Below, one piece after another: positions 1,603 through 63,384 of a stretch of 64,000 nt of DNA. This stretch comes from Chiloscyllium plagiosum (lineage: Eukaryota), in assembly GCF_004010195.1 (NCBI RefSeq), contig NC_057755.1, positions 3,681,462 through 3,745,461 on the forward strand, in the 5' to 3' direction. The translations under genes and the position numbers were made by a program. Below the pieces are notes generated by a model. That model was given only the letters and a program-made list of their open reading frames with translations. It searched no databases and was not told the origin of the DNA. The number at the start of each line of letters is the position of its first letter. The first letter of the stretch is position 1.

Positions 1603-1669
1603 CGGGGATTGTTACAATCGCAAGGGTCATATAAAATAATTTCCGCAAGTAATAAAGTGAAAATGTCAT
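1603..1669 (-). CDS. Coding exon 1 of GPR139-like orphan GPCR (unit 1); exon 2 expected left of the window
   Basis: ATG at 1669 gives MTFSLYYLRKLFYMTLAIVTIP+G (22 codons + 1 nt), then a GTAAG donor (1602-1598). Length, phase and the IP-G|GTAAG end match the exons at 35267 and 63125. Confidence 0.75.
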
Positions 1670-1743
1670 TTTCTGCCTGAAACTCTGTGCGCAGGCAATC
1701 TCTCTGTACTCAATGCGAGGTGATGTAATCTCAAAGCCTTTCA

Positions 1744-1749
1744 TTTATA
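1744..1749 (-). promoter_or_regulatory. TATA box of unit 1
   Basis: TATAAA on the minus strand ~75 nt upstream of the ATG, conserved in the duplicate at 17430-17435. Confidence 0.5.
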
Positions 1750-3527
1750 CCTGCTGGCATCGCCTGGGGGACAGTTACATTACAATGTGTTTCACTTCAT
1801 TTATTTAAGAATTTGAACAAACAGGTGACAGCGGTGAGTTAACTCCCAGTGGCAGCAGATTATTTTTACAACTGTGGTTTATACGAATATATCTATCGAA
1901 TTCTCATTTCATGTCAGTGTTGTCCTCCCCTTGACTTTGATCATTTGGAAATTAAATCCCAGTTGTTGAGTGTCTCTCTGAGAAACGTTCTCTTCAACAC
2001 TGGGATGTATTTTCCATGGTTATCAGCGACCATTCTGTGAAGGGATCATCGTTGGTTAATGGTTTCTGTCGGTCTCAATGAATATATCATCGCAATTCCT
2101 CTCCTTGTGCACAGACAGTGTCTGATTCGAACATAATTTCTCCACACAAGGCAGTAATTGAACCAGGTAAAAATAACTCAATGAAAAATGCCCTCAAATG
2201 TTACATAAGCTCCAATCAATACAGAACCTGCTACCAAGGTAAGAGCGCCCCGGACATGTCTCAGAGCTAACTCTGTATCACACATGATCCCTAAAGCAAG
2301 ACGTCGGGATGAGTTATTCTCTGTCACCTGCAGTGTATTACACATGTCCAGAGAAGAAACCTAACATCTTACGGATGATGGGATAGAACAGTTTCAAGCG
2401 AGATGGAGGAGTGAGGCCAAGGAGGGATTTGCAAATACAAGGATGTAGAAATGTACAATTCTGGAAATGATTGAGTGGGGTCAATGTTTTCAAATACGCC
2501 CGTTGAGGTGGGGAAATGGGACTTGGTGTGAGGACTGATAGAGGAGAAAAAACAGAGCAGGAGTAAATATGTCACTACCATAATGTCAGGCTGGTATTAG
2601 CGAGTGACACAATGATCTTTTCTTGCGACACTGACATTGATAATCTCTATCAATGACTTAGATAATGGGATCATGCATTACCTTTGATCGTAATACAATA
2701 TTAAGTTGACAGTAAAAAGCAAAGGAGGATGTAGGAGCGCTGAGAAGGGCAAGGGCAGGTTCAGTGAGTACAGGAGGACAAAAGAGTCTTGCAGTATAAT
2801 GGAGAGAAATGTGAGGCTTTGTTCATTCATTTCAGTCTTGGAATAGTTTCATGCCATCGACAAAATTTCAGGCGATTTTTCTCATCCTAAAGCAAGAGGC
2901 AACAAGAAGCCTTTCGGTCCATTCATCGCCAGACGTTTCCATGATTCTTGGAAAACTTTACTCATCTAAAATCCTTTTAAATCAAGGAATTGAACCACAG
3001 GGTTTGCGTCATCTCAGTCGCTCACAATTGAACCCTTGTTGTCCAGCTATCAATCTGGTGAATAAATGCTGCATTCAAATGGACACTGAGCCCCAGCTCT
3101 CCAGTATTTACTTTCTGTTTCTTTTTTCCCTTATTTATAAAGTTAATTCGGTGTTGTGTTAACTTCAAATGGCAGCATGCACAAAGCTAACATGACTGAC
3201 TGACTCTTTCAAAATCATCAGTTTTAACTAGCCAGAGTCCAGGATGGTATATAGTCTCAACAGTGCCGAGGGTTAAGAATATCACAGAACAACCGAAGGA
3301 CATCTTGGTGGGTGGGGTTTGCTGGAGTGGGACAGGGGCTGGAGTGGGAAAGTGTGGAACATGAAGAACCCAAGATTCTGATGCACATTGGCGCCAACAA
3401 TGTCTGGGAGTGAAATCGATGCTCAGAGTCTAGCATCTTGTCATTAATCACCCTTTATTTACAAATGCACAGTTTCTGACAGTGGCCGCTCACTGAGACA
3501 GATATTCAACATCTCAATTTCCCTGTT

Positions 3528-4185
3528 GTCCACTTTCACCAGGTCCTGGCCAATCAACTCCCACAGAGTCGAATACAACTCTGGCTGGTAAGCTATCACT
3601 TCTGCGAGGCTCTCTGTTTTCTAAGGAGTCGAGAGCCTTGGTCAGCATCTCCAGAGATAGCGGCTGGTCCAGCTTCTCCCGCATGTTGTCATTTTAAACC
3701 TACACAATTGGAAGTAATGACCGGAAGCTGCGCTATCTGTGAGATTCATGTCATGTAACATGGCGCAAATGGTTTTGCTTATCCTCAGGATGTCAGGCTG
3801 AGATAATGTTACAGAGTGATTTTTCTCTCTTTCAGGCTGCTGAGCATCCAGCTCTCCCTGTGCAATTTCTCGAAGACCAAACGTTAGCGCGTCCCGAACT
3901 GTTCCACAGTGTGGACCCCGGACCGGGAGATTATCTTGATGGCTTCGGAGGTAAAGAGTGAGGCTTTCTGGCTGTTCACCTCCTGCAAATCCTCCGTGGC
4001 ATTGACACCCATGGTCTGCACTTGGAGTAGATTCTGCACGCTTTTCTGTCGTTTTGACAGTTGTCCCCATTTCTCTCTCACATTTAGAGGACCTTAGAGA
4101 ATAAAGATCCGCTTCGTGTTCCCCTTGGCTATTTACTGCAAGTCTGAGGGAGCCAAAAAGAAGGTCTTTACGGTTCTCCAACCAT
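3528..4185 (-). mobile_element. Tx1-type (L1 clade) non-LTR retrotransposon ORF2 fragment, degenerate
   Basis: Frames give QKSVQNLLQVQTMGVNATEDLQEVNSQKASLFTSEAIKIISRS and VTLSQPDILRISKTICAML, resembling the EN-RT linker of Tx1-like ORF2. Homologous to 20920-21800. Confidence 0.65.
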
Positions 4186-4594
4186 TAATGTGGGAGAGTA
4201 TAAATTAGGCCACCTTTCTCCAGAACTTGGAAGCTCGGGTTTATAAGGATATCCACTGTATGAGGATTCAAACACAAAGGTATATAGTCTGCAATGCAGG
4301 ACCAATGTGTTCAGGAGAGATGTTAGGAAGCACTGCTACACAGAAAGGGTATTGGATGGTGGGAAGCCTCTTCCACAAAGGGCAGTGGATGCTGGATTAG
4401 ATGTTAATTTTATATCTGGGATATATTTCTTTTTCTTAAGCCTAGTTAGTAAGGGATAAGGCACAAACACAAATCAGGCACTGAATGCTGTGACCTGCTC
4501 ACGGGGGCTTAATGTCCTGTTATTTAGTTCCCATGACTACAAACCGCCTCTCCCAGCCTAGAATACGATCCCTAAAGTGTGGAATTAGACCCGT

Positions 4595-8353: not shown

Positions 8354-8393
8354 GCACTGATGATGTTGCCTAGCCAGGGGACGAAACGTTTGC
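8354..8393 (+). ncRNA. Minimal hammerhead ribozyme motif (Penelope pLTR)
   Basis: gca-CTGATGA-t-GTTGCC tagcca GGGGAC-GAAA-CG-TT-tgc: intact core, stems I and II, palindromic ACGT stem III. Confidence 0.7.
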
Positions 8394-13407: not shown

Positions 13408-13410
<3 letters not shown>

Positions 13411-16358: not shown

Positions 16359-17299
16359 ATCAAAACAAAACAACCCTTCAAAATATTCACACCAAGATCC
16401 TTATATCTATCACTTGGTTAAATGACTTTTGACTGCCAATTCTCAAGTGGAATTGCAGTCAATTGCTTCCTGGAGATACCACACATCTGAGCATCAATGT
16501 ACTCAGCTTTTATCCAATTACTTCAGAGCTTTTCTGTCTGTGATCAACACTAAAGTTTCTCTCCTAGGTAATGTCATTGACGAAAACTCTCATTTCATTT
16601 GCATGAGCACAGATTTATATATCCACTCAATTTCAGGGTCTAACAGAAACAAAAAGAAATGACAAAAATAATAAACGTGAAAGTAAAGCTTACTCAGTCA
16701 GGGTTTCTTCTTTAATTGCAAATTCCAGAACTCACCAGCAATTTTTTTCAGGCTGCATTAATACCATGCTGGGTTGCAAGCATCAAAAATAAACAAAAGC
16801 TCATTCGTGCACAAAGGCATTCAGCTGATCGCCAAACTTCAAACACAACTTGTAAAAAAAAATTGCTGCAATTACACAAATAACTCCAAGTTAATTATAA
16901 AGTTCGGATGCACAGAGAAGGCTACTGCATATTCACTTCAACACCAGAATCCCAATTGAAATTCAATAATATTGCACTCTCTACATAAAATACTGCCACT
17001 TATACATTTCCAAAGCGATTCCTTGCCTTAATTCCAGTGAAACTCTCCGTAATCTCCCATTAAAATGGAAATTTCTGGAAGCTTCTCAGAAGAGATGAAT
17101 ACTTTCCCATGCAAGTCTTGCAGAATCTGCGATGATGGGGATTCCACAGGGTCCCTATAATCTGATAATAAATTACCGAGCTCCTGCCACTATGTGACTT
17201 CTGGGCACATTATGCCCATGTATCATTGTCAGTGACAGTGTGAACACGCAACCGATCATCAGACAGATTTACACAATTTCAATGGTGTACTACACTAAT

Positions 17300-17354
17300 C
17301 GGGGACTGTTACAATCGGAAGGGTCATGTAAAATAATTTCCGCAAATAATACAT
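17300..17354 (-). pseudogene. GPR139-like exon 1, orphan and disabled (unit 2)
   Basis: MYYLRKLFYMTLPIVTVP; 12 nt shorter than unit 1; donor G|GTAAG changed to G|ATTAG; no exon 2 recognisable downstream. Confidence 0.75.
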
Positions 17355-19242
17355 TTTCTGCCTGAATCTCTGTGCGCAGGCAATGTCTCTGTACTCAATG
17401 GCGAGGTGATATAATCTCAAAGCCTTTCATTTATACCTGCTGGCATCGCCTGGGGGACTGTTACATTACAATGTGGTTCACTTCATTGATTTAATAATTT
17501 GAACAAACAGGTAACACCAGTGTGTTAACTCCCAGTGGCCACAGATTATTTTTATTTTATTTATTTGGTTTATCTGATGATACATGTCTCAATTGGTCAG
17601 GAGCAAACAGAGGAAAATTCATATTCAATAAAATGATAGAATCCTTACAACGTGGAAGCAGGCCAATGGGCCCATCAAGTCCACACTGACCCATCCGCGC
17701 TCTCTGTCAGGGAGCAGGGCCTACCACTGAGTCACTGTTCTGCCCTCTATACAAGCATTGACACCACAACACTAGCTCTCGAACTTTAAACTCTCATTTC
17801 ATTTCAGCGTTGTCCTTCCCTTGACTTTGATAGTTTGGAAATTAAATTCCAGTTGTTGAGTGTCTCTCTGTGAAACGTTCTCCTCAACACTGGGATGTGG
17901 CTTCCCTGGCTATCAGACACTGTTTTGTAAAGGGATGATTGTTGGTTTATTAAATCCAACATCACAACAGAATTCCTCACCTTGTGCTGATTCAGTTTTT
18001 GAACGGAACAGAATTTCGCCAATTAAGGCAGTAATTGAAACAAGTAAATTAACTCACTGAAGAAAACACCCTCGATGGTTACATAAGCTCCAATCATTAC
18101 AGAACCTCCTACCAGGATAAGAGTGTCCTGGACATGTTTCAGAGCTGGCTCTGAGACACTCATGGTCTGTAAAGCAATTCACAGGGATGAGATATTCTCT
18201 CTTCCCTGCGGTGCACTGCACGTGTACACAGAAGAAACCTAAAACATTTGACTGATGATGGGATGGAACAGTTTCAAGCGAGATGGAACAGTGAGGCCAG
18301 GGACGGATTTGCACACACAAGGATGCAGAAATGTGAAAATCTGGAAATGTTTTGTGGGAGTCATTGTTGTCAAAGAGGCTTGTAGTGATGGGGAAATGGA
18401 CTTGGTGTGAGGACTGATAAAGGACAGAAAACAGAGAGCAGGAATAGATATGTCATCTTAATGTCAGGCTGGTATTACAAGGACTATTACTCGAGACACA
18501 GTCATTTATAATTTCTATCAATAGCTGATCATGTGTTATTTTTGCTGATAATACGATGTTAAGTGGCAGAATACAACACAAGCAGAACATACACACGCGG
18601 TGAAGGAGAAGGACAGGATCAGTGAGTGAATGAGCACAAAATAGTCTGTGCAATATAATGTAGAGAAATGTAAGACATTCTTCGTTCATTTCAGTCTTGG
18701 AAAGATTCAGACTATCAGTAAACTTTTAGATGCTTATCTTAGTACAAAATCAAGAAACCTTTGGTTCCATTTAGTGCCAGTAGTTTCCTTTATTCTCTTG
18801 AAACATTTATTAGTCTCAGACACTTCTCAATTTGAGGAATTCAGTTCTGGGTTTGCGTCATTTTGATCTCTCATCATTGAACCCTTGCTGTCCAGTATCA
18901 TTCTGGCCAATCGATAGTGTACTCAAATGAACATGTCCTCCCAACTCTCCATTTTTAGTCCCCCATTTATAAAGTAAGTATGGAGCTATTTTGATATCAA
19001 ATAGCAGCAGTGCACAAAGGGAAAATTATTGGCTGACTTTTTCAGAATGATCAGACCTAACTTCACAGAGTCCAGGATGGTATACTGCATCAAAAGTACA
19101 TCGGGTCAAGAACATCACGGAACAACTTAAGCATATCTTGGTTTGTGGGTTTGACTGGGGTGGGACAGGGGCTAGAGCGTCAAAGTGTGGAAAGTGAAGC
19201 GACCAAGGTCCTGATGCACATTGACGCCAAAATGTCTGGAAG

Positions 19243-19468
19243 TGTTATCACTCTTCAGAGACCAGCATCCTGTCATTAATCACCCTTTATTTGCAAACAC
19301 ATAAGCTTTCATTGTAGCCTGTTGTTGAGTCAGACATTTGACATCACAATATCCCTGTCATTCATCCTTTTATTTCAGACAGGGCTCCCTGATTGGATTA
19401 GATTAACTTCCCTAATCAGGGAACTTATATCCTCTGAGGTCCACCTGACCGACTTCATGACAATAACA
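19243..19468. mobile_element. Solo-LTR-like element
   Basis: TGTTAT...ATAACA inverted termini; interrupts a CR1 ORF1 remnant; related sequence at 3410-3525 and 25735-25987; no clean TSD. Confidence 0.4.
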
Positions 19469-20919
19469 GGTTGAAGCAGCAATGAATTCCCATACGTAAT
19501 ATTCGGCAAATCAGGGGGGAATTTGAAAACCTGATCCCCTCGTTACTCTGAGTATTCATTTATCCAATGACCATGTGGTTGGAAACAATGGTTCAAGGAT
19601 GATGGGCTTTGGATCTCTCGATTATTGGTGAGGTTTCTAGGGCTGGAGTGACCGACATATATTGGAAACGTGGGTTTTGCTTTAACTGGATGGGGATTGC
19701 TACTCTTCAGGGGAAACATACTATCGCCATTGTGAAATATTTACTCAAACCAGTCAGAGTGCCTTAAACCTGGGATAAGTCTCAGTTAGAAGGCAATTGG
19801 AGATGGCCACTTGAAGCCAAAAATCTGTGAGGAAAAGATAAAAACAACTAGCATGTGTTCTGGATCCATGCTTCAGAATCTTAACGTTCAGGATCAAATA
19901 CTTGCCTCACAGGTTCAGCAACAGGGTTCTTTCTGAAGCACTTTTTTTAATTTTAGGAAACCTCAATAGCAAATATGTTTCAGTAATGTGATACAATTAG
20001 TGCCGAAATATCACCTTTATATTTATTATTTGTGATGATGCTTGAGGTATTTCGTCAGCAATGACACAGTAAAAGGACTAGCTTATTACATCTCACAGGT
20101 ATGAATTGATACAAGAGAACAAATGTAAGCATGCAACAAGTTAATATACTTGCACCAAATATTGCAAACACAATGCAGTAGCATGAATTTACAATATTAT
20201 TGTATTGGGGAAGAGTGATCTTCAGATGCATGAAATGTTTATTCAGTTTGAGAATGAAGAATTTGAGTGTGAAACTCGGGTCCTAACTCTAAATAAAAAA
20301 ATTGATGCATGAATGAGCAATGATAGATTGAGGAAACTTAGTAAAGAAGATCTCGGTGGATAGATAATTACTAAAGAGGAAGAAGTGCCTGAATGATTTT
20401 GAACAATTGTATAGTTGCCTTCAGGTCAACAATAAGACAGGAAAGGTGAAAGTGTGCAACCCTGCCTGACCGTGGATCTGATCAGGAAGCTTTCTGATTC
20501 CCAACCATTGACTGAGACTGAACTGATAATGTTGGTGTAGAACAGTCAGATTCATTTGTGGAATCCTTTCCCAAAGATTGCTTTGGTGAGCACATCCCAC
20601 ATGAATGTGTGTGAGATCCTGTCAAAGACCTTCTGTTCTAGGCTGATGAGGGCGACTTCCAACCCCCCTGTCCTGCACATAGACGATTCTATCTCTGAGA
20701 AGTGTGAGGCTGACCGTACAGATCAGGTTTGCTCGGAGTGCATCACTGAGCAGAAAGCAGTTCTAAGTCGATTGGTGATGACCTTAATCAGATTATTTCA
20801 ATTTACATTCAGCAATGAAAATGGTGGTCAGTCGTCCCTCTTTTTCTTCTGATTGTAAATGCGGAGGAGGTCAACTTTCCTCATGGATTCACAAAGGCTA
20901 CCTGTTAGAAGCATGTTGT

Positions 20920-21800
20920 TATCCACTTCCAGCAGGTCCTGGCCAATCACGAGTCACCGAGTCACGAGTCACAACTCGTTCTGCTAAGCTGTCTCTTCTG
21001 CACGTCTTAATCTTTTTGAAGAACTCGAGGGCCTCGGTAGCAAATGCAAAGATAATGGTTGGTGCAGCCTCTCTCGTGTGCTGTCATCGAAGACCTACAT
21101 GACAGCAAGGAATGACCAGGAGGCTGCGCTTTCTGTGGGGTTCGTGTCGTACATTCTAGCACAAAAGGAATTGCTTATCCTCAGGATGTCAGGCTGAGAT
21201 AATGTTGCAGAGTCACCTTCTTCCTTCAGGTTCTGAGCACAGAGCACTCCCTGTGCAATTTCTGAAAGACCAAATGAGAGCATTGCTAATCCTAATCCAC
21301 GGTGTGGACCTTGGATGGGGAGATTACCTTGGTGGCTTCTGAGGTAGAGTGAGGCTAGCTATTCTTCACCTCCTGGTGATCCTCCATGACATCAACCCCA
21401 TCGCCTGCAGCAGGTGTAGGTGCTGCACCTTTTTCTGGAGTTTGGACAGTTCACTTCGTTTCAGAAGACCTTTGGGAATAACGACAGTCTTGAAGTTCCC
21501 TCCGTGGTTCTCCCTTTTCAGCTCCTCCATGTTTTCTAGGATCAGCTGTTATATGCTCAGATTCCACGTTCCCTTGCTGACCAACAGGAGATAGTGGTCA
21601 GAGAAGAACTCCAACTTCGCGCTGGTGGATTTGACAAAAAACAAATCCGAACCTCTCTGGTCTCACTTCACAGGAGAAGCACTGGAGCCTTGGTGAACGT
21701 CCCTCACCCACTTCCTCATGAAATCTTGTTTTAAGCTACCAGGCGTTGACGGGGTAGGCAGCGTTCAGTATTCTGAACCCATTTGATTCCAATTGCCAGG
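20920..21800 (-). mobile_element. Tx1-type retrotransposon ORF2 fragment (end of EN plus linker)
   Basis: FVKSTSAKLEFFSDHYLL (APE endonuclease SDH motif) and LKEEGDSATLSQPDILRISNSFCARMYD. Confidence 0.7.
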
Positions 21801-24409
21801 CCGGTCGCATCCTTCTGTCTTCTTTTCTTCCCCGTCTCCATCTTTATCTTCTCTTCCTTGTGGCAGTGATGGTAGAGGAAGATGGCATCAGTGGTGTCTA
21901 CAGCAGCAGCGTTGTGAACATGGAATAGGAAATCCTGGTGTCGGTCGTGACATTGGTGTGGTCGGCCCAGGTAGGCAAAACCATTATCTTGTTTGATTAC
22001 ACTGACCCGGTGTTAATGAGGCAATTAAACTGAGATATTAAAGCAAGAAGCGTGCAGCATTCACTGTCACATTCAATCAATCCGGTGAGATATGCAAGGC
22101 TTCAACTTGACTGAACATTGAAGTTATTGTTGCTGAGATATTGCAACAAGGTTTCAGGTGGAACAGTAGGCCTGAGTTTCAGTAGAACATTTTTTTGAGA
22201 CGGGTCAATTAAAAAGAGGAATATAAAATATCCAATTAAGGTTTTATGTAACACCCATTCTGAAATAGAAACTGAATTTAAAATATGACAACTACTTTGT
22301 TACATTATAATACTGTTTAGCCACTGCAGTCAGAAATGACCAAGATAACGAGATAAAAGCAGGTCAGACGTCCCACTAAAGCTTGTGATTTCAAATTAGC
22401 CTTTTGCACGATAACCTGGTGTCATGTGATGTCTGACATTGTCCACCCAGTCCAACACCGGCACCCCCACATTAAAGCTAAAAGAAGTCACTCAAATCAG
22501 GGAGATGCCACAGAGAACATCAGGACAACAAAGCAGGAACCTTGTGAGAATGAAGAACAGCCCAACTCCAGTTCGACAAGCTGTAATCGCGCATTTTAAT
22601 CTAGTTTGAGGACATAGATGTTTCAGAACTGTTATGTTTCTCGGGATATTAGAGGGAAAAAACTAGTTTTGTAAAGTTACATATTTATCAATCTTCTATT
22701 TCAAAAACCAAGTGTGATTATTGGTGTAAAACGAAGCCTATAAATTTTGCAATAGGTCAGAATATATGAAAACGAAGCCTACAGTAGATTTTGGCAATAT
22801 CTACAGGGAAATGGTCACCTCCTTGATTAATCATTTTCCCTTGGTATTTTTCATGAGAAAATAAATCAAAAACTAAAGTTTCACTCCATGTTCTTTAGGG
22901 AAGGAAACGGCCATCCTTACCAGGTCTGGCCTATATGTGACTCATGAACCACAGCAATGTGTTTGGCTGTTAATGGCCCTCTCGGAAGGCCATAATTGCT
23001 CTCCTAGATGGTGAGGCGCTCATCTCATGTATGGCCACGGGAGTTATGCTGCAGGTAGGAAATACCCTAATTAGATCTTACTGGGAGTACTGGGAGGAGA
23101 TACAAGCACCACATCTTTGGAAGGAAGAAGGAACACAGAGTAGATTTAAATGAATGATACCTCTACTTCCAGGGTTTAGGTATGAGGACAAACTGCGCAA
23201 ATTAGGCCTGCCCTGCTCTCTCTCGAGATTAGAACACAGGGTAGATAAAGATAAACCTGGTCGTCTATTCTCGAACAAAGGAAAATAGTTTGTGAATTAG
23301 GGACAGTGTGTTTTGGAGAAATGTTAAGAAGCACTTCTACACAGAAAAGGTTGTGGATATTTGGAAGGGCAGGTTTGTGCCATTTGGCATTTAATGCTGG
23401 ACCAGTTGTTAATTTTAAATCTGAAATATATTTTGTCTTTGGCATGCATACATATTAATGAATAAGTCACAAATACAGGGGTGTATGAAGTTACCTTGCA
23501 GATCCGCCATTGAACGGCAGAATATGCTTGAGGGGGCTGGATGGCCTTTTGCTACGTCTCTGTGACTACTAATCTCTTCCCAGGACCGATCCAAGGCATT
23601 GACATTTTTCCTGAAGTGTGGTACTGTGAAATTGGCAGAAATCAATTTTGACTCATTACAAGACTTCCACTTTTCAATGATTCAAAGCAGATCTGCTTCC
23701 CTCAATCGTGGCTGAAACAGTGAATTATAATGTTTCAGCAACATTTCCCTCACATTTGTACTCTAGCTGGATATTGTATGGATTTTTACAAACCCGCCCA
23801 ACCTGCCCAGTCAGTTTCCAAAAATAAAGTGTACACCTCCAAGACTTGACATTATGACATTCCCCCCAGAATTGGGCCAGTTAATTTATAGTGTCGCTCT
23901 TTACCAAAAAGATTAAACAATTCTCACGTCCTATATTATCCACCGTTTGCCTGCCCCTTTCCCTGGTTAATGGTATAAAATATACATAGAAATATCGCAC
24001 TAACTGACTGTGAAGAGTTGAAGTACTTAGAATACTGCTCGGAGCCTTTATTTAAGATATTCCTTAAGAGGAGAACAGATGGCCAGAGACTTGAAAATTT
24101 CATTGACAGATTTTATTTTTAATTCAATGGACAGAGCATTACTTCGTTTTCAATGACTAGATGAGTGTGCTGCTTCCATTGACACACCCTGCAACACTAG
24201 AATAGGAGAAGGCCATTCAGTTCCTTCTCCACTTTGTTTCACTGGAATAGGAGGCCATTCAGTTCTGATTACTCTTGACAGATGCTGGCAGACTTGCTCA
24301 GTTTTTCCAGCAATTTCTGTTTTTCTTTCTGATTGACAGCATCCGCAGTTCTATTGGGTTTCATTCAGCCCCTTCTCCAGCCTGCTTCAAAATGGAGGTC
24401 ATTTAGTAG

Positions 24410-24740
24410 GTGGAGGAGATAGCCTCGTGGAATTATTGCTGGACTGTTAATCAAGAGACCCAGGTACTGTTCTGGGGACCCAAATTCAATCCCAGCACTG
24501 CAGATGGTGCAATTAGAATTCAGTAAATGAGACTAATGATGCCCACAAATCCAATATTAGTTATTGATCCACTCAGGTCCTTTGGAGAGGGAAAACTCCA
24601 ACCTTAAATTGTCAGGAGCACATGTGATTCCAGGCTCACAACAATGTAGTTGACACTTAACTGCCCTCTAAGTAATTAGAGATGGGCAAAAATGCTGGCG
24701 CTCGACAGCAATGCACTCACACCATGACTGAATGAAAAAG
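24410..24740 (+). mobile_element. SacSINE1/DeuSINE-like SINE
   Basis: Paralogue of 5733-6070. A partial related copy lies at 22880-23030. Confidence 0.6.
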
Positions 24741-26589
24741 CCTCTTTTTGAGACTGATACAGAGGAAGAGGAGGACGCAATTTAGCTCATTTTGAGGTGG
24801 TAAAGAGGGGAGGTTGAAGGCCATTCATCCCCTCTCATGTGATTACAAGAACAGCAAAAGGGCACTTCGTCAATTTACACTGTTCTACATGAAAAAGAGA
24901 AGGCAGGAGTGAAAGGGAAGCTGTGAGTAGTGCGGGTGTGTGTGAGGTTCAACGACAACTACATGGAGAATGAGGGAGAGAAGGTGAGGCAGAAAGAGGT
25001 GATCCTGGGAGGCAAAGCAAAATGGAGGGAATGAATTGTGGTGATGGTTGGAGGGAGAGCCAAGGCTCAATATTGAGGTTTGCAAATTTGAAGGAATGAA
25101 ATGTTTTCTTGAGGTAGCTTCTCCCTATGAATCAATAATTAAGTCAATATCTGCATTCAGTCATCTCTATCAATTGCCCCGTATTTCATCCTTTCTTTAT
25201 TAGTCTGTATTTACTCCTGCCCTATTACTCTTTACTTAATCACTACTTTACCTATATTTGATCCTGTATATTCCATTGTATTTAACCATCTCTCACTCTC
25301 TTCTGCTCAGTTCAACAATCTCCCTATTACCCTCTGTTTACTACTGACCCTATTATTTTATATTTAAGCGTCTGACAAAAAATTTCCATTGAACCCGCTC
25401 TATTTAAATTGATGTTTGATTCTACAGTGTTTAACTCTGTCTTTGTTTTCAGTTTTCTCCCTACTGCTCACTAATTCGCCTTCTCATTATTAGTCTCCAT
25501 CAAATCCTCTCCACTCTGTATTTAACCCTCTCACTTTTCCTGTATTTTAGACTTTCCCAATTATCCTGCATTCAACTCTCTTGTCATGAGTCTCCATTTA
25601 GTTCTTTCTCTATTACACTGTATTAACTCCACTTTCTTTCCCCTTAAGTAATTCTCACTGTACTCCACTCTATTCAATATCCTCCCTGTTATTCTGGATT
25701 AAATCTTCTCACCTTCCACAAAGTTTGCTAACCCGTCATCAAGTTACTAATTTTATGCTTACAAAGTATGTCACACTGACCCAGCTGTCTCCAGGCTGAC
25801 ATGCAACAAGTCCTCTCACAAAACTGAGCTAGCTTGCTGATCGGATCTGAAGATAACAGACATTAATCTGAACATTCCTGTTTATAGCTGTCAGCCAGGA
25901 CCTCCAGATTAGAACAGGCTATCAGGCCCAATCAGGGAACTCATATTCAATGAGATCTATCTGGCTTGCCTCTTTATATTCGTTACATTTTCTTCTGTAT
26001 TGATCCTCTCCCTGCGTCCCTGTAATCAATACTCTTCCTCTTGCTCTCTATGTACTTCTCCCACTATTACTTTCTATGAAATCTTCTCCCTCTTCTGTCT
26101 TCAACATCCTGCTGCCATTCCTTGTGTTCAGCTCTCTCCCTCTTCGTCCCTATTTAACCCCTCCAATTGTATTTTAGTAATTTCCCCATTATTCTTGATT
26201 AAATTCTCTTTCAATTACAATCGTTTACCCTCTCTCTATCTGTATTTAGCCCTCTCTCTTTTCCCAGTGCTCTTCAAATATTGTCTCCTCCACACCCCTT
26301 CCAGAATAAGTGTTATACGCCAGAATAATGAGAGACTGGGTGTCCCAGCCTCATCACTGATCACTACACGTGAACGTGTGATCGCCGCTGCTCTGTGCTG
26401 CCGCCCCTCTGGCCGCCGCTGTGACTGCAGATCCATCCCGAAGTGCTGAGTACTCGAACCTGGTCCAGTCCATCGATTCCAATCAGTCCCGAGACAGTTT
26501 TCCAAAGCATCAGACCAGCATTGTACTTCATTTTGTGAAGAATACTCCCATTTCACCTTCTGCTCGTCAGCTGTTTCCACATGTAGGAG

Positions 26590-30954: not shown

Positions 30955-31862
30955 TTAATTCTCTTGGAATTGTGGTCATGCACTGAGGAAACTGTAGTCC
31001 CTCAAACTGCACCAGTCTTTACCTGCTGGACATGGGAACAGCAAATCTATTTGCTAGAATCACTGAAGATATTCTGTGACAGATTAAATATTATTATTTC
31101 CCCTATATTTCCTGGACCTCATCCCTGTGTGCAGTGTTAACAATGTTCTGCTTCATGCAGCGGTGAACTGTTCTATCCGGTTCACAGTCACCTTCTGATT
31201 TAATCGATTTATTACAATCTGCTTCCTGATCATGAAAACGAAATATTGCACCAAGAAAAATGCAGATATCATTTTCTCAATATGGTACACGTCGCTCTGT
31301 TTTTAAAAAATCCGGTTTTAATTTTGATATGAATAAAAAAAGGCCATTGCCCATGTAGCATGGTTCTGTTATCAAAAAACAAAATGCATTACTGAGCCTG
31401 GATAGGTGGGATTTAATTTGTTTGATAGGGTTTTATCTCCATTGTTTCCATTTGCTTCAATTTTGTTGATCAGTGCTCTGACATTAAGACACATTTTCGT
31501 TAGTAGTCGTCCATCAGAGACTGCAGGGTCAGAACAAAGGAGAGATTCCCAGTGACCCAGAGATGAAGGGCAGAAGAAAGTCTGTGATTTTACTTTTCAC
31601 CATATCCGGCACCTTCATAATTCTCTGGTCAGTGCATGTTATGGAATTATTTTACTATAACATTCGAGGAAAACACCTAAAACTTTGCAACAATACAGAA
31701 CATATATTTGTGACGGCTGGCCTTTCACTGGCGAATTTAAGTTGCTGCACAAATACATTTGTTTATATGGCAACCCAATCCCAGTTCAGACAGCAAGACC
31801 AGGAGATGATGAAGTATCCCATCACATTAATTATCCAGTTACTGAATGAACAAAACGGCTGA
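30955..31862 (+). pseudogene. GPR139-like GPCR exon 2 pseudogene (unit 3); exon 1 not found
   Basis: Intact polypyrimidine-CAG acceptor; (V)NSLGIVVMH*GNCSPSNCTSLYLLDMGTANL, PVCSV...FTVTF*FNRFITICF...KTKYCT, RRKSVILLFTISGTFIILW, LSCCTNTFVYMATQSQFRQQ. Several stops (first TGA at 30984) and frameshifts. Confidence 0.9.
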
Positions 31863-34630: not shown

Positions 34631-35266
34631 CTAGAATCCTGAAATTAAGCTTCTGAATTAGTTTCAAGTTTGTTTTGTATTTGTATCGAGAAAGCATAAG
34701 TTAGTGTAAGTGTCAGTTGTTGTTGTGATCGATATTAGCTTCAGGTTCTCTCTTGGAGTGCTCAGACACAAATAGAATTTCACAAATGAGTTGTAAACAT
34801 GAATTAATAAGAGCAACAGTGCCATACAGTGTGCAGTAATACAGCTCGCAAGGAGCGCTACAACATGAGGTATTGAAAGTCTGAAAAGCGTCAGCAAATT
34901 GAAGGTCATCATTGAAAAGAATATCAACAGATAGTTCGATATTGGTGGGACTGATAATGAGTGAAACCATGTTGCTGCTTGAAGACAGGTTGGAAATGAC
35001 ATTGAGACGTGATGGGATCAGATTATTCCAGTCTTTGGGGTACTCAATTACAGACATAAATCTCATTGAGATCACATCATTAAAATAAAGCTGTAGCTGT
35101 AATCTGTTCAGAAACAAAATAACAGTGCCTTCAATGTTTCCAGTGGACTTGTAACATCATACAAAATAAGGTTGTGGAAATATGTCAGCTCCAGTTAAGA
35201 GAGAATTCTCCAATTCTGACAGGTTGAAAGCAGCAGGAAGGGAGAGACTGTTTCATAAACAGCAAA

Positions 35267-36997
35267 ATGCATTTTCCGAGACAAACGGTGGAAAATCTGT
35301 ATGCCACTGTCCTTGCCACTGTTGGTATTCCTGGTAAGTCTTTTAACATGCTATGTTACATACATATATGCATTAAATCATACCTATTTCAACTTTATGA
35401 CTATAAATTATATTATTTTCATTTAGCAAGGCAAATTCCATTGGCAGGCGACAGTGCCCTCACCTATTGAGTTTAAAGTGAGCAGTTTGTCAATTATGAG
35501 CCTACTCAGTAATGTGTAGCATTGTCAGTTTGTTAATTATGCGCTGAATGGTATTTTAATGATAATGAATGGATTATTTTTGATTGACCACCGGCTCTGT
35601 CTTGCCCCAGAAAAACTATTTAGAAATCTCACTTTCTGTCTCTGTGATAGTTCAAAGCCTGCGATGGGTCAGATGAGTTTTGTAAAAATCCACCTATCAA
35701 TGACATCAGGCTTTTCCCATGTCTTGGTGTTAAGATATTTTGTTGGTGCATCTGACTCAGGCAGCTTGCTCCAAATGGGAGCACAGATGCAACGTTGTGA
35801 GGATGTTGTTGCCTTATTGGAAACTCCAGTCAGTCTGAGTAACTTATGAAGCAGATGAAATCAACCACTGCCGAGCCCAAAACAATGTTGAAGAAATTAC
35901 AATGCTTCTGTCAGCAATCAGCTACTTATGTTTTTCCCTTCATATCTTAAAACCTGCAAGTGATTCATCTGGAGAGTATTTACTGGTGTGGTTCAGATTG
36001 TTTAAAGTTTGTATGACACAGAACAACACTTATCTTTCTGTCATTACTTACAGCCTGGGTCCAGCCGCAGATAACGTTTGATCAGTAACTACTTTTTCCC
36101 TTTAATTCTCTTACCGTTACTCTAGTGCTAATTGTATTTCTGGCTCAGGGAAAGTGTGGTCTTTCGAAATGCAGCAGTCCTATCGACTGAACATGGCAGT
36201 GTCTGATCTGCTGTTCATTTTTTTTGCCGTATTCTTCAAATTTTCACGCTATTATTATGCACAATGTTTCCTGGGCATTACTCCTGTTTGTAGCCTTACC
36301 TATGCCCTGAGCTGCTTGACCATTGATTGTTTGGTCTGGTTCACTGTTGCATTTTATTTTGATCGATTTGTCGCCATTTGTTTTCATCAGATGAAGACTA
36401 AGTATTGCACAGAGAAAACTTCGATGAGAGTTCTAGCAGCAATCTGCATTTTCTTTGCTTTAAAAACATTCCCAACTACTTCCCATTTAAACCTGTAATG
36501 ATCAGCAATAATGTTCCATGGTACTGTTATACCACGTCCAGTTATTATAATGACCCTCAGTGGAAACGTTTTGAATATTTTGAACAATTTTTAACGCCGT
36601 TTCTCCCATTTCCTTTTATTCTCTTTATTAATGTTCTGCCCGTCAGACACACCTTCGATACTGTTAAGGTGCATAAGGGACTGATGGGTCAGAGAAAAAT
36701 AGACAATGATCCGGAGATAGAGAGCAGACAGAATTCCGTGGTTTTACTTTTGCCATATGTGCTAGCCTCATACTTCTCTGGTTGGTTTATGTCTGAATTT
36801 TATTTAATGTTGTTGATTCCTTGGATTTTGCTGCTTCTCCTCTCTTCCAACAAGTCAGGTAAATGCTACAGGACTTACATTTCTGCACAAACGCATTCAT
36901 TTATGTGGTGACGCAGAGAAATTTCAGAGACCAGTTGAAGGACGCTGTGAAATATCCAGTTATGAAAATAATTCAGTTGATGGACTCGAAACGTTAA
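35267..36997 (+). pseudogene. Complete two-exon GPR139-like GPCR pseudogene (unit 4): exon 1 35267-35333, exon 2 36117-36997
   Basis: MHFPRQTVENLYATVLATVGIP-G|GTAAG; 783-nt intron; the expected acceptor reads ttaccg instead of ttacag. VTLVLIVFLAQGKCGLSKC, MAVSDLL, VWFTVAFYFDRFVAICF, DPEIESRQNSVVLL, CTNAFIYVVTQRNFRDQL. Frameshifts near 36180, 36465 and 36750. Confidence 0.9.
35560..35800 (-). mobile_element. Vingi/ingi-like non-LTR retrotransposon remnant in intron 1 of unit 4
   Basis: AGFELSQRQKVRFLNSF; homologous to 48165 and 63476. Confidence 0.5.
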
Positions 36998-39929: not shown

Positions 39930-40160
39930 AATTTCAACTTGTTTGGATCAATGTCGATGGTTATGTTGTATGTGGAATCGAATGTTATTTATCTGCATGA
40001 CATTTTGCGGGAATTGGATTTCATGCTGAAGCTACTCAGTTGCTGTACAAACACCAAAGTTCATGTTGTGACTCAGACTAAATTCATACAGCAGCTGAAT
40101 AATGAGTTCAAATATTCATTTATCCAAATTAATCAATCAAGTATTAAAATTAATCAATCA
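39930..40160 (+). pseudogene. GPR139-like GPCR TM6-TM7/helix 8 fragment (unit 5)
   Basis: ILRELDFMLKLLSCCTNTKVHVVTQTKFIQQLNNEFKYSF matches the LSCCTN.FIYVVTQ..FR.Q.K..KYP pattern of the neighbours. Confidence 0.8.
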
Positions 40161-44760: not shown

Positions 44761-47703
44761 GCGCTGCCAACCTTTCTAAAGTTCCCAGCTGAACATTTAT
44801 CGCCCTTTTTATTGGTTCATTTAGTGTATCAGTGCGTTCCATGTTAACCAGAGTGAAAGAGGAAATCCACAGTTGAGGATAAAGGAGCTTATGTTAGATA
44901 GACAGGGATGGGAGGGGATACCATCAGAACAGGTGGATATGGAGTAACAGGGATAATGGAGTGGAATTCTTGCAGGAAGCTGGATGTGAGGAAGTGTATC
45001 CGAGATAACCTTGGAAGTCAGGGCTTTGTCACAAATATTGGTTGACAACTTTTCTCCAAAAAGAAAGCATCGAGGTCAAGGAAGGGAAAGTCCAAAACAG
45101 GTGAGGAGGTCACGTGAGAATGATAGAAATTTGAGGCAAATTAGTGTTTTTCTTTCCAATTCCGGCAAAAACAGAGTCAGAAATAACCAGTTCACCGATG
45201 AATTGGAGAAAGTGAAGCAGTGAAGACCTTAAGAGTGCTGGAATAAGGGCCAGTCTACATTCACTAAACGGAGACATTTGACAACTGACACGCCCCTTCT
45301 CGCCCCGCCACCTCCTGCCCACACTACATTCCTGCACCACTCTCCGTGCAGATATCCAGAACCAAACCTTTCACTTAGAGAAAGTGAGATTAAGTTAAAG
45401 AAAACAAATTGCAAATGCACACAATCTGGCGAAGGTGGATTGCGATGGATGGTGACTGTTCAGGTCTATATTTGAGGAGGAAGCACAGAACCTTTAAAAC
45501 CATCCTGATGGGAGATACATATGGCAGAGTTATTGCACGTCCATGGTGAAGAGGAGGCAGGAAGGACAAAGGAAACAGCTAGCAACTTTACAACTAGCTA
45601 AGCCTCAGAAGAACCGTGCATGTAAGTTTTGCCTCCAATTGCTTTGTATTTCAATAAATCACAGTGCTCACATAAAATCATTTCCCCCTCCACCTCAAGC
45701 CTTCACTTCCTGCTATGACACTTGCTGTGTCACTGCATTTTTAAAAAAGCTAATCTCAGTGCATTTTCCTTGATCATTAATGTACGTTATATCTTTAAAG
45801 AAATTTAGCAGAATAAATAAACATCATTGACTCTGCCAAATTAACTTGAACTAATCATTGTGTCCTCCTATGTCTCGTTGAATAAAACCTTACAACAATT
45901 TCCTTGCGAAATATTAACCTAACTGGCCTATGCTTCATGTCTCCTGTATCCATTTTGTAATGCAGGACTTCCTCCTGCTACCTTCTAATACACTCAGGCT
46001 GGACAATGAATCACCAGGAAGAGCAACAGTTTGAAGAATTGGATAGTGAAGCTCTTTCACTGGCTGGATATTGGTATCCCATTTTCCATCAGAGTGGATG
46101 GATTTGTTGAATGCTAAAAGATTATATGAACAAGGCAATGGAAATGAATCTATACTTGTGAGACATCCAAAATGGTGCTTCATAATGGCAACTTTGTGTC
46201 CTCATGTATTCCTATACTTGGGTGCATATGACAATAAAACCTAATTAATATCTAATTTTAACATCAAACATTTAGGGAGTCAATTAGGTTTACTAAACGC
46301 TCACATTAATTACAGTCATTTCGCCATAGCACTCATGGATGGCTTGTTTTATGCACATCACGTTGAAAGCAATAAATCACAATGACACTAGATAACGCAA
46401 TAAGACAATATTTACATCTGGAATTTCAAGTTTTGAAGTACTAGCAGCGAGTTTATCTCAACCGGACAGGTGGTTGGAACTCTTCTCAGACTGATGGTTC
46501 TGAGATTGTTCTTAATCCAGGTCTCATTTCCCATCTCCTTCAGATCAGTATTTTTGATATCATGCCCTTACATTAATAGTATTCAAATATTGTAGGTTTG
46601 AATGTGAAACTACTCATTGTCGAAGTTACTGTATTCTCCTGACATTTGCGTTACCCAACAGTTGCAGGAGAGATGACAATACTCTTCTGATACAATTACA
46701 GCTTCAGTGGTAGTTGCAGAACACAATCTCGTTGCAATGACGGTAACAAATTTGCTGCACTTTTGACATAATCATTATGTTTTATAACGCTAAAACTGAC
46801 CAATTTGGGATCACAAGGGGTGCATGCATGTCTGGGACACAAGGAATGACCAAATATCAGACGATCATTCAGGTTTTTAAGACGTTATGTCTGTTTTTAA
46901 CAGCAGGGATTTCATAAACTTCTACATGGACTAACCACTTCCTGCTAGTGGTCTGAAAATGCTTCACTGTTCAGTAACGTTGCAAAGAATATTGAGCGAG
47001 TGCTTCTGTCTGCTCAATGAATTTCATGATGGTTAAAATATGATTTAACGGTCATCCACCAATTTGCTGAATTCCTTTGTAGCAATGGTGATGCCCCTTC
47101 ACAGCCAAGAACACACAGTGCTAACCATTCAAAAGTGCCTGCCAATAGTTTACATACCAAGCAATGTTGTTTTCACAGTTTTCTGAATTTTCTGGCAGCC
47201 GTAATCTTGTCAAAATGTTTTGTTCAGACGTGTTTCATAGATTAATTCAGGGCTCTTGGAGTTTGATGCCTGGACCAGAAATGCAGTTCACATGATGTAG
47301 AAACAATGGTTCGGTGGTATGTTTGTGTGTTGGGGGAGGGAGAGGGATTTTTCAGGACTTTGACAGAGACATACAAGAGACTCGCCCTAGTTCCACAGAG
47401 CTATTCTCACATGGAGAGAGAGAGAGAGAGAGAGTTGTTGACACGTTCAACCCAAGGATCACCTCACCTGTCTAAATCTTAGACCAGCCGTCCTGTAAGC
47501 TGTACTAACTGAGCACCTGCTGGATGGTTAGTTTCTGATGTAGAATGACACCAACAGAGAAGGTTCATTTCCAACGTTGGCTGAGATCACTATGAAGATT
47601 CCAACTTGTCAAGCAGGCCCCACTCCTGAGGTATGACGACCTTCAGGTTAAAATCATGACCAGTTGTGTCTTCATAATGAGCAAGCAGCCCTGTATTCCA
47701 CTG

Positions 47704-48159: not shown

Positions 48160-48900
48160 TAGCAAATTCACTCTCTCTCTCTGTGGGAGTTCAAAGCCTG
48201 TTATTGGTCAGATGTATTTTGTAACAACCTTCCTGTTAGTGACACCTGATGTTCCCCATTCTTTGATCTGAATGATCTTGTTCAGCCAACTTGCTCCAAA
48301 TGGTACAATGTGGTACAGACACAATGTTGAGCAGGTCATTATGGCGTGGTAAGTGAGTGTCAGCACAGATAGCTTCGAATATCCTATGTATTTTCATAGT
48401 CAGTAGATGTGTAGGGATTTGGTATTTGTGAGAACAGATCCCTGGGAGGGGTGCCGAGCACAGAATTCCAATTATGATGTGTATTGTTGAATTATTTGTT
48501 TGTCAAAAAGATGAGTGCGTTGTGTCATTTGTAAAATGATTCACAGTGCTTTGGTACAGAGTCTAATTGGACTGAGATCTGGAGTGTTGAGGCAGTAGCT
48601 CTCCCACAGAGGATCAACCAACTTTATAAAACAGTATGTTTCCCACCTTTCCCTTTGTTGCTATGATCTTTTTGATGTTCCCCGAAAGTTTATGTGAAGG
48701 TCCACCCACTGATGCTCATTGGGATTATCAATTAGTTGTTGACTATCAAGTTAGATTTTTTTGTGTGCTTGGTATTGACATTTTGGAGATGAATCCATTG
48801 GATATATTTTCAGATAAATTCTCTGTGAGGCGATGGAGTTACACCATAGATGCAGTGCTCCGACATATTTGTGAAATATTTGATATTGTACATGGTCCAG
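48160..48900 (-). mobile_element. Vingi/ingi-like retrotransposon RT remnant (intron 1 homologue of unit 6)
   Basis: Colinear with 63476-64000 over ~500 nt, and extends further toward the RT core. Confidence 0.55.
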
Positions 48901-50826: not shown

Positions 50827-51549
50827 ATCACTTGTGTTTGTAGTGTTATCTATGTGCTGGCCTGTTTGACCATTGATTGCTCTGTCTGGTTCACTGCTGT
50901 CTTTACGTTTGATCGATTTGTTGCCATTTGTTTTCATCAGACGAAATCTCAGTATTGCACAGAGAAAACTGCAATCGGGATTCTAGCAACAATCTGCATT
51001 TTCTTTTCTATAAAGAACATTCCCAGCTACTTCCGATTTAAATCTAGAATGATCAGCAACAATATTCCATGGTATTGTTACAGCAAGTCCAATTATTATT
51101 ATGGCCGTCGGTGGGCAAGTTTTACATATTTGGAATAGATTTTTACACCAATGTTACCATTCACTTTTATTCTCCTTCTCAACATTCTGGCTATCAGATA
51201 TATCTTTGAGGCCATTAAAATGTGTGAAGGACTGACGGGTCAGAGAAAAACAGAGAATGACCCAGAGATAGAGAGCAGAAAGAAATCTGTAATTTTACTA
51301 TTTGCCATATCTGCCTCCTTCATACTTCTCTGGTTGATGTATATTTTACTTATTTTTCAAGTTGCTTATCATTTGAATTCTGTTGCATTTGGTCTCTTTG
51401 AACTAATCGCATTTATGCTGCGGAAACTAAGTTGCTGCACAAATGGTTTTATTTACGTGGTGACGCAGAAACATTTCAGAGACCAGTCAAAATATGCTGT
51501 GAAATGTCCAGTTATAAAAGTAATTCAATTGATGAATAAATCCAAGTAA
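50827..51549 (+). pseudogene. GPR139-like GPCR exon 2, TM3 to C-terminus (unit 6); 5' part lies in the gap; one in-frame stop
   Basis: ITCVCSVIYVLACLTIDCSVWFTAVFTFDRFVAICF...TYLE* (TAG 51136-51138), then the same frame continues PFTFILLLNILAIRYIF...ESRKKSVILLFAISASFILLW...LSCCTNGFIYVVTQKHFRDQ...MNKSK*. Confidence 0.9.
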
Positions 51550-61500: not shown

Positions 61501-62745
61501 TGTATATGGATTTCAGCAAGGCATTTGATAAAGTTCCCCATGATAGGCTCATTCATAAAGTCTGGAAGTATGGGATAAAGGGAGATTTGGCTATCTGGAC
61601 ACAGAATTGGCTGGCTGACAGAAGGTAGAGAGTGGTTGTAGATGGAAAGTATACTGCCTGGAAGGCAGTGTTGAGTGGGGTTCCGCGGGTCTCTGGACTT
61701 GGGCCTCTGCTGTTTGTCATTTTTAAAAATGACTTGGATGTGGAGGTGGGTTAGTAAATTTGCAGATAACACAAAGGTTGGAGATGTCGTCGATAGTATA
61801 GAGGGCTACTGCAGGCTACCACGTGACATAGGCAGAATGCAGAGCTGGGTTGAGAAATGGCAGATGGAGTTCAATCTGGATAAATGCGAAGTAAAGCATT
61901 TTGGAAGGTCTAACTCGAAAGCTGAATATAGGATTAATGGCAGGATTCTTGGTAGAGTGGAGGAACAGAGGGATCTGTGTGTGCAAGTACATAGATCCCT
62001 CAAAGTTGCCAGCCAAGTGGATAGCATTGTTAATAAAGCATATTAAGTGTTTTGGCTTTCATGAACAGGGGATAGAGTTTAAGAGCCATGAGGGTTTGCT
62101 GCAGCTCTACAAATCCCTGGTGATGCCTCACTTGGAATATTGTGCCCAGTTCTGGTCGCCCTACTTTAGGAAGGCTACAGATGCTAAGTGGATAGCATTG
62201 TTAATAAAGCATATTAAGTGTTTTGGCTTTCATGAACAGGGGATAGAGTTTAAGAGCCATGAGGGTTTGCTGCAGCTCTACAAATCCCTGGTGAGGCCTC
62301 ACTTGGAATATTGTGCCCAGTTCTGGTCGCCCTACTATAGGAAGGATACAGAGGCTTTGGAGAGGGTGCAAAGAAGGCTTACCAGGAGATGCCTTAACTG
62401 GAGGGCTTGCCTCATGAAGAAAGGTTGAATAGGCTCGAACGTTTCTCTCTGGAGAGAAGGAACAAGAGAGGAGACAATATGGAGGTCAAAAGCCAGAGAC
62501 TTTTCCCCAGGGCAGGATTGACTGATACGAGAAGTCATAGTTTGAAGATATTAGGAGGAAGATATAAAGAAGACGTCAGAGGTAGTTTTTTTTTTAACAG
62601 AGAGTTGTGAATGCATAGAATGCGTTACCAGCGCTGGTAGTGGAAGCAGAGTCATTGGGGACATATACGCGACTGCTGGACATGCACATGGATAGCAGTG
62701 AGTTGAGGGGTGCGTAGGTTGTTACTATATTTTACATTAGGATTA
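58570..62745 (+). mobile_element. Near full-length CR1/HER1 LINE (ORF1 zinc finger + SGNH esterase; ORF2 APE + RT), disabled
   Basis: VVGDSIVR...CCLPGARVHDV...VVHIGTNDI; NARSVRNK, AITET, DFNFPNID, SDHNCL; WKEANVVPLF, KFADNTKVG. Stops and frameshifts; internal duplications 59514-59589 (38 nt x2) and 62015-62356 (171 nt x2). Confidence 0.96.
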
Positions 62746-63124
62746 ACTGAATAGCCTCAGCGAAATGAAGGGAATCACTGAAAAGAATATCAGATGATGT
62801 TTAGACATTAATGGGACTGATAGTGAGTGAAATAATGTAAGTTTTGATCTTTGGAGACAAGTTATAATTAACATTTGAGACCCGAGAGGATCAGATTAAG
62901 CCAATCTTTGGGGTATTCAAACATGTCCTTAAATGTCAATGATGTTACATCATTAAAATAAACCTGATGTCATCATCCATTTGTTTGAAATGATTAAAAA
63001 ATAAAGAATGATCACAGTATCCCACTGGAGTTACCACACAACATAAAATGATATCCCTGGAACTATGTCAATTTCATTAGGTTGCCAGCAGAAGGAAGGA
63101 AGGGCTTGTTCAACAAACAAGAAA

Positions 63125-63191
63125 ATGCATTATGCTAAGCTAGTTTTTGCTAAAGTGTTCTACACGATCCTTGTAATGATTGGTATTCCCG
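63125..63191 (+). CDS. Coding exon 1 of GPR139-like GPCR (unit 7); exon 2 expected right of the window
   Basis: MHYAKLVFAKVFYTILVMIGIP-G|GTAAG (63192-63196); flanks are homologous to those of unit 4 exon 1. Confidence 0.8.
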
Positions 63192-63384
63192 GTAAGTCTT
63201 GTAAAAACTTATGCCATGAAAATCTCTGTATGTAAAGATAATTATTTCACTCTATGACTGATAATTGTTTTATTTCCATTTAGCAAGACAAATCCCAATG
63301 CCAGACGATGCTGTCCTCATTTACTGAGTTTAAAACAATTAGTTTGTCGATTAGAGGATTCCTCAGTAATGTGCAGCACTGCCT

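Follow-up and report, generated by a model that had tools for sequence, protein, structure and literature searches.

A 64,000-nucleotide stretch of the Chiloscyllium plagiosum genome (contig NC_057755.1, positions 3,681,462 to 3,745,461; hereafter, the window) contains a decayed section of a gene cluster, the members of which belong to a lineage-specific, pseudogene-rich family of class A G protein-coupled receptors (GPCRs) of cartilaginous fishes. Such a family had been proposed in the initial annotation of this DNA, and the proposal is borne out by a high copy number, open reading frames (ORFs) in other species, constraint, and a diversified predicted ligand pocket. On balance, the sequence patterns favor the view that the family is a chemosensory repertoire, whose copies would each recognize an external ligand of their own and present a shared face to their G proteins. 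The window contains eight receptor pieces (U1, U17, U31, U36, U40, U46, U51, and U63, of which U46 is a probable one), and six of the eight are broken or fragmentary.

The family is large, with members in sharks, rays, and a chimaera. With U51, read through its stop codon, as the query, 769 of the 966 candidate proteins pass the threshold of E ≤ 1e-10; the best 120 of these 769 all come from sharks or rays and are mostly auto-named “probable GPR139.” The horn shark accounts for 58 of the best 120, and 29 of those 58 are on a contig of one same size. A profile built from 63 family sequences (A1), in which 41 columns are invariant among the 63 members, matches 130 clusters (50% identity) at E ≤ 1e-30, many of them represented by fragments or chimeric models. 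All 16 representatives that were looked up among those scoring above the first non-chondrichthyan match are from sharks, skates, rays, or a chimaera (Callorhinchus), and many ORFs of the family are found in sharks, rays, and the chimaera. In two public sequencing runs (X1 and X13, kind unrecorded), 774 and 760 contigs, respectively, match an 891-nucleotide stretch of U51 at ≥82% identity, with up to 67 contigs per site, which is a sign of many copies and does not give a copy number. No description of this expansion was found in the literature searched, although subscription papers and the supplement of the catshark atlas could contain one; public databases already list the proteins themselves, under a misleading name, and their single-copy cousins have already been catalogued. 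In two shark gene models, P0194 and P0209, an exon of the family is fused to a sodium channel-like or integrin-like model; these are probably annotation chimeras.

The class A motifs D2.50, C3.25, DRF, P5.50, W6.48, and N7.49/Y7.53 are each conserved in 57 or 58 of the 58 horn shark paralogues, and P6.50 and P7.50 are absent. Mean entropy in this set is highest at the 32 pocket positions (1.55 bits), lower at the 59 remaining outer positions (1.19 bits), and lowest at the 105 inner positions (0.43 bits); the respective values for 18 sawshark proteins are 0.96, 0.73, and 0.21 bits. In the two apparently single-copy lineages described below, the pocket is, in contrast, the quietest part of the protein (pocket, outer, and inner values of 0.67, 1.12, and 0.89 bits for the 102 proteins of the conserved lineage and 0.06, 0.51, and 0.49 bits for the 18 amphibian proteins). 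This reversal of pocket versus outer positions between the horn shark and the two single-copy sets amounts to 0.8 bits and was equalled in 7 and 0 of 10,000 permutations. A check for neutral evolution had also been suggested, and the ratios of nonsynonymous to synonymous substitution rates (dN/dS) between window copies, 0.58 (0.40 to 0.87), 0.48, and 0.41, with all bootstrap intervals below 1, indicate purifying selection. Most of the divergence therefore arose under constraint, before the copies died.

The structural model of family member P0002 (predicted local distance difference test score [pLDDT], 69) has seven long helices, helix 8, and a hairpin in loop 2, the latter being typical of peptide receptors. 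Acidic residues recur in the horn shark paralogues at positions 3.37 (Asp in 57 of the 58), 5.42 (Asp or Glu in 46), 5.39 (Asp in 45), and 2.57 (Asp or Glu in 45). Position 3.32 is variable (most commonly Leu, Ser, or Ile) and does not carry the Asp3.32 by which TAARs are recognized; in teleost TAARs, amines are held by Asp5.42 (PMC4695389). Together with that precedent, the acidic residues, the retained disulfide between Cys3.25 and the loop, and the predicted loop-2 hairpin make cationic molecules or peptides, and not Trp or Phe, the probable ligands.

In the scenario that we favor, segmental duplication in LINE-rich (long interspersed nuclear element) and otherwise repeat-rich DNA would generate new copies, selection would keep the G-protein side and let the pocket change, many copies would die, as they have in this window, and the members that still work would together cover many outside ligands, most likely in a chemosensory epithelium such as that of the nose. 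A more specific version, plausible but held with less conviction, is that cartilaginous fishes possess a fifth, lineage-specific family of smell receptors that arose from the neuropeptide receptor branch, outnumbers the V2R set, and uses an acidic pocket floor to detect amines or cationic peptides. The putative promoters offer a hint in the same direction. In four of the five upstream regions (those of U1, U17, U36, and U63), a 10-mer resembling the O/E (EBF) motif, with one or two mismatches, ends 12 nucleotides before a TATA-like box; a positional match of this kind (≤2 mismatches in a 25-nucleotide stretch) has a background of 4.6%. The motif was chosen post hoc. Since the boxes were picked by eye and the upstream regions are not independent of each other, the spacing is suggestive only, and the element points weakly to control of an olfactory type. 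The composite Lhx2/Ebf motif of the mouse, for comparison, is an enhancer motif that is enriched relative to OR promoters (PMC5608512).

Several observations weigh against a chemosensory assignment. The difference between pocket and other outer positions is borderline within the horn shark set alone (P = 0.054) and in the sawshark set (P = 0.13), meaning that general variability of the outer face accounts for part of the signal; moreover, the pocket positions were assigned from a general list by counting along the sequence from anchor residues, and the paralogues compared are the best matches to a single query. By simple count, the O/E motif is not enriched in the upstream regions (≤1 mismatch in one of five against a background of 6%; ≤2 mismatches in four of five against 58%); U1 and U17 are duplicates, U36 and U63 are homologous, and U46 has no O/E site. 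In a single-cell RNA run (X21, tissue not given), of which about 2% was read, only 31 of 12.96 million reads match U51 at 82 to 95% identity, 30 of them partially, and none matches at ≥95%. These reads fit low-level transcription of paralogues and could be DNA or unspliced RNA. At ≥93% identity, U36 is matched by one partial read in X21 and by three short contig ends in run X23, with no spliced joint; RNA run X22 gave no reads on U51 and is uninformative. In the catshark, no GPCR appears in the top-50 list for the “brain & olfactory epithelium” library, a list that would also miss sparsely expressed receptors, and OR and V2R genes are expressed in the spleen, testis, and rectal gland as well (PMC11979771), so that repertoire-like genes need not be nasal.

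The alternative that survives best, although we regard it as unlikely, is an immune or barrier repertoire, in which leukocytes, mast-like cells, or sensory cells of the skin or gut would respond to cationic peptides of microbes or of the host, in the manner of mammalian FPRs and MRGPRs. A conserved inner side with a variable pocket fits this role too, and so would the acidic pocket floor and the predicted peptide receptor-like fold. The fixed-spacing O/E-like element weakly favors olfactory-type control over this alternative, and EBF acts in B cells too. MAS1-related receptors are described as absent from cartilaginous fishes in the whale shark paper (PMC8455134); their absence would leave that role vacant.

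It is still less probable that the family consists of receptors for diversified peptides of the animals' own, in reproductive or neuroendocrine signaling, as in the deep relatives that bind FMRFamide, MIP/sex peptide, and proctolin. Clusters of FMRFamide receptor-like proteins are found among the neighbors in the ESM Atlas, in agreement with such a role, but the pseudogene load and the fast turnover of the pocket fit poorly with fixed endogenous ligands; we know of no matching expanded peptide family, although none was looked for. The invertebrate relatives of GPR139 are peptide receptors of this kind (PMC12208981), and an expansion to ∼450 FMRFamide receptor-like genes in a snail has been interpreted in this way (PMC11589774).

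A similarly low probability is assigned to mostly passive amplification, whereby a few functional genes would be multiplied by repeat-driven segmental duplication and most copies would be drifting. The window by itself agrees with that: it has no demonstrably intact receptor gene in its 64 kb, it is 39% self-similar, LINE remnants lie between the receptor units, and one duplicate carries only a promoter and exon 1. Such a process is, however, at odds with the many ORFs in sharks, rays, and the chimaera, the invariant columns of the profile, the dN/dS values, and the pocket-biased variation. Passive growth may account for this window and for some of the copies, but not for the family.

The relationship to GPR139 is a distant one. 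Human GPR139 is the best match of profile A1 to a solved structure in the PDB (59 bits, E = 3.7e-15; the next match has 36.7 bits, E = 2.2e-8), so the name “GPR139-like” given initially is fair as a statement of remote likeness. The family is closer to separate orphan receptors, with 176 bits for a salamander protein and 167 bits for a coelacanth protein on the same profile, and most of the GPR139 pocket residues are replaced in it. The U51 fragment alone did not recover GPR139 among the 20 PDB matches listed, and a Foldseek search with the P0002 model, which ranked a neurotensin receptor 1st and GPR139 23rd, is uninformative below the level of the fold. In GPR139, Trp and Phe are bound by F109(3x33), H187(5x43), W241(6x48), and N271(7x38), with R244(6x51) as a modelled partner (PMC5430874). 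When these positions were mapped by counting on the alignment of the profile with GPR139, the 58 horn shark paralogues retained F3x33 in 9 cases, H5x43 in 1, W6x48 in all 58, R6x51 in 2, and N7x38 in none; 47 of the 58 keep just one of the five residues, and the window copies keep the Trp alone. The suggestion that the aromatic amino acid ligands of GPR139 carry over to this family is thus not supported, given the pocket and the identity of the nearest relatives. Like human GPR139 (PDB 7vug and 9m42), the family has a short N terminus and Trp at 3.41 and 6.48, and GPR139 is the source of its automatic name; unlike GPR139, it has four of the five ligand residues replaced, Cys3.25 where GPR139 has Asp, no Pro6.50, and many divergent copies in place of one conserved gene. 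That its members are true duplicates of GPR139 or GPR142 that still sense aromatic amino acids, as the best solved match, the database name, and the universal W6x48 might suggest, is very improbable in the face of these replacements and of the much higher scores of the two orphans.

Those orphans fall into two lineages, one amphibian (18 proteins) and one broadly conserved (102 proteins), with most species represented by a single entry in the 120 matches listed out of 184. The conserved lineage includes proteins from the coelacanth, ray-finned fishes, amphibians, reptiles, and three sharks, in each of which one gene was found. Identity to P0002 is 27% for the amphibian lineage and 28% for the conserved one, and the coelacanth orphan scores only 70 bits against human GPR139. 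In a tree of 48 rows, which did not include true GPR139 and GPR142, the 28 rows of the chondrichthyan expansion form one side of a branch (support, 92/80), and the sharks' conserved gene lies outside it, within the conserved lineage (100/99). The amphibian lineage is a weakly supported sister of the expansion (84/89), and the conserved lineage as the alternative sister is not rejected (approximately unbiased test, P = 0.076). A homologue search with an amphioxus protein, aimed at true GPR139 and GPR142, returned eight amphioxus proteins only. The amphibian receptor (P0230, P0350, P0362, and P0370) is apparently single copy, was seen here only in amphibians, and has W-x-P-K in helix 6 and N7.39; its lineage is a possible window on the ancestral ligand. 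The conserved orphan (P0233, P0320, P0361, and P0371) lacks W6.48 and keeps R6.51 in 102 of 102 proteins. Two of its models, from the zebra shark and a frog, bear the name of isoforms of transmembrane protein 183A, a hint that the neighboring gene is conserved and could serve in synteny comparisons.

GPR210A and GPR210B have been named beside GPR139 and GPR142 in the coelacanth, gar, and other fishes in a paper whose main text does not contain the word “shark” (Rinne 2019, PMC6504862), and “NMOGPR” and “Orphan 139-like” have been tabulated as unclear (Furlong and Seong 2017, PMC5207463, Table 1). The single-copy lineages probably belong among these GPR210 and “Orphan 139-like” groups. Such orphans would then be the nearest relatives of the shark family found here outside the chondrichthyans; unlike the shark expansion, they look single copy and have a frozen pocket, and sharks keep that gene separately.

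The features of the window are listed in the table below. The window has a GC content of 41.7%, a single gap of 500 N, and no long receptor ORF. A profile of 69 full-length relatives, run over the whole window on both strands, matches exon 2 in four units (U31, U36, U40, and U51), every one of them on the plus strand. On the minus strand, neither the profile nor tblastn found an exon 2 anywhere in the window, despite the presence of three minus-strand exons 1 (U1, U17, and U46). An exon-1 profile built from 51 peptides scores 19.3 for U63, 15.6 for U36, 14.6 for U1, 9.3 for U17, and 6.1 for U46, compared to maxima of −1.0 to 3.5 in five shuffles. The exact 67-nucleotide exon, which starts with ATG and ends IP-G|GTAAG, occurs three times (U1, U36, and U63) and in none of 200 shuffled sequences; no exon 1 was found in the window for U31, U40, or U51 by the profile or by a pattern search. 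Both exons are therefore visible in U36 alone (positions 35267 to 36997).

Among seven window ORFs submitted to Pfam, four match PF00001 (7tm_1), one of them above the cutoff, and two of the three without a match are nonreceptor sequence. The window pieces also give weak matches to Srw and, at E ≤ 0.1, none to the OR, TAAR, or V1R models. The ORFs at 3645 to 4184 and 18057 to 18452, considered as receptor sequence, were rejected, as they have no Pfam match and are located in the segmental duplicate. A search of the window against Rfam gave no matches. An arrangement in which alternative first exons share one exon 2 was set aside because two of the three minus-strand exons 1 are defective and one arose by plain duplication.

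Features of the receptor gene cluster in the 64,000-nucleotide window
Feature	Positions	Strand	Description
U1 exon 1	1603..1669	-	Intact, 67 nt, 22 codons + G, GTAAG donor; exon 2 lost or to the left of the window
U1 putative promoter	1742..1771	-	O/E (EBF)-like 10-mer (2 mismatches), ends 12 nt before TATA box
Segmental duplicate of 653-7208	16363..26105		65-83% identity in blocks; includes U1 upstream region and exon 1 plus beginning of intron, without exon 2
U17, dead copy of U1 exon 1	17300..17354	-	55 nt, 12-nt deletion, donor GT -> AT; without exon 2
U31 exon 2, old pseudogene	30955..31862	+	Full length, acceptor AG intact, no exon 1 found
U36 putative promoter	35138..35167	+	O/E-like 10-mer (2 mismatches), 12 nt before degenerate TATA-like element
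U36 exon 1	35267..35333	+	67 nt, GTAAG donor
U36 intron	35334-36116	+	783 nt; 3' end CG in place of AG
U36 exon 2, pseudogene	36117..36997	+	3 frameshifts (about 36179, 36455, 36747), 2 stops (36794, 36860)
U40, 3' exon-2 fragment	about 39969..40148	+	Transmembrane helix 7 and helix 8 region; 39.6 bits
U46, probable eighth piece	46015..46082	-	Absent from initial annotation; frameshifted exon 1 (68 nt) from another subfamily, with donor GTGAT; without exon 2
Probable U51 intron remnant	48169..48662	+	70% like U63 intron; U51 exon 1 not found
N gap	50327-50826		500 N; conceals 5' part of U51 exon 2
U51 exon 2	50827..51549	+	Transmembrane helix 3 to C terminus; in-frame TAG at 51136, one stop in 240 visible codons
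U63 putative promoter	63020..63049	+	O/E-like 10-mer (1 mismatch), 12 nt before TATA-like element
U63 exon 1	63125..63191	+	Intact, 67 nt, GTAAG donor; exon 2 presumably beyond window end

All seven units of the initial annotation exist, in both orientations, and its end points are exact, position 1603 being the last base of the minus-strand exon 1 of U1 and position 63196 the end of the GTAAG donor of U63. Its statement that at least five units are disabled also holds: five are confirmed, or six if U46 is counted, and the other two (U1 and U63) are intact exons 1 whose exons 2 are absent from the window. The single architecture ascribed to the seven units needs qualification, since the 67-nucleotide exon is found in three of them, but U17 has 55 nucleotides, three units have no detectable exon 1, and U36 alone shows both exons.

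The lesions of U36, whose exon 2 is 65% identical to the zebra shark protein XP_059494337.1, are the best documented. Contigs of 499 and 510 nucleotides from two samples (runs X1 and X3) cover positions 36436 to 36934/36945 with eight substitutions, no gap, and the stops unchanged, so the last four lesions (two frameshifts and both stops) are not assembly errors; the span of these contigs excludes the first frameshift and the acceptor. U51 is 71% identical to the same protein in its exon 2, and its TAG codon was seen in the assembly only, without independent confirmation, because the sequencing-run depth at this site comes mostly from paralogues that carry C. U31 has five to eight stops and two to four frameshifts, depending on the reference, and NRF in place of DRF. 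U36 and U51 group with the zebra shark protein (tree support, 100/100) and U31 is on a different branch; the cluster therefore mixes subfamilies. The support for U46 is weaker than that for the other units (profile score of 6.1 versus a shuffle maximum of 3.5; tblastn E = 0.002), and the flanks of U63 are 67% like those of U36.

The repeats between the units include a broken non-long terminal repeat retroelement at 59897 to 62425 (plus strand), with remnants of an endonuclease and a reverse transcriptase (PF03372 and PF00078, both below the cutoff), and further reverse transcriptase remnants at 15587 to 16192 (above the cutoff) and 29217 to 29588. Near-exact head-to-tail doublings within LINE remnants, at 56012 to 56372 (180 nucleotides) and 62015 to 62356 (171 nucleotides), are 97% identical and represent recent duplications or assembly artefacts. 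Tandem arrays are located at 53171 to 54157 (a 44-nucleotide unit in 22.5 copies with 78% matches), 40736 to 41130 (37-nucleotide unit), and 7803 to 7990 (36-nucleotide unit).

Sharks are described as having few smell receptors (PMC10116579, PMC11979771), the catshark complement being 2 canonical ORs, 3 ORAs, and 3 TAARs (PMC11979771), and a relative paucity of GPCRs is noted in the whale shark paper (PMC8455134). The coverage of the shark chemoreceptor surveys is limited to OR, TAAR, ORA, and V2R (PMC10116579, PMC11979771). This few-receptor picture would change with the addition of a large GPCR family that has a diversifying pocket, regardless of the tissue in which the family is used. If it serves in the nose, it would bear on how sharks achieve good olfaction with a few dozen known receptors; if it serves in immunity, it would be a new family of innate sensors in the oldest lineage with antibodies. 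Should a fifth family of smell receptors prove real, the view of a tiny odorant receptor repertoire in sharks would be overturned. To that story, this window contributes mainly the decay side.

In its clustered genes, nearly single-exon coding regions, numerous pseudogenes, and variable pocket on a constant signaling face, the family resembles the OR, TAAR, and V1R/ORA repertoires, as well as FPRs and MRGPRs, in the features generally ascribed to these groups, and it shares Asp/Glu at position 5.42 with teleost TAARs. Unlike OR, TAAR, and V1R, it is of separate origin, from the neuropeptide receptor branch. To our knowledge, the GPR139-related branch has given no expanded repertoire in vertebrates. 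Among invertebrates, the nematode srw genes are an expansion of the FMRFamide/MIP receptor branch, and the Lymnaea expansion (∼450 genes; PMC11589774) is, like the shark family, a lineage-specific mass expansion from that branch. In contrast to these invertebrate expansions, the shark family is an independent one that arose inside the jawed vertebrates and has a two-exon layout of its own.

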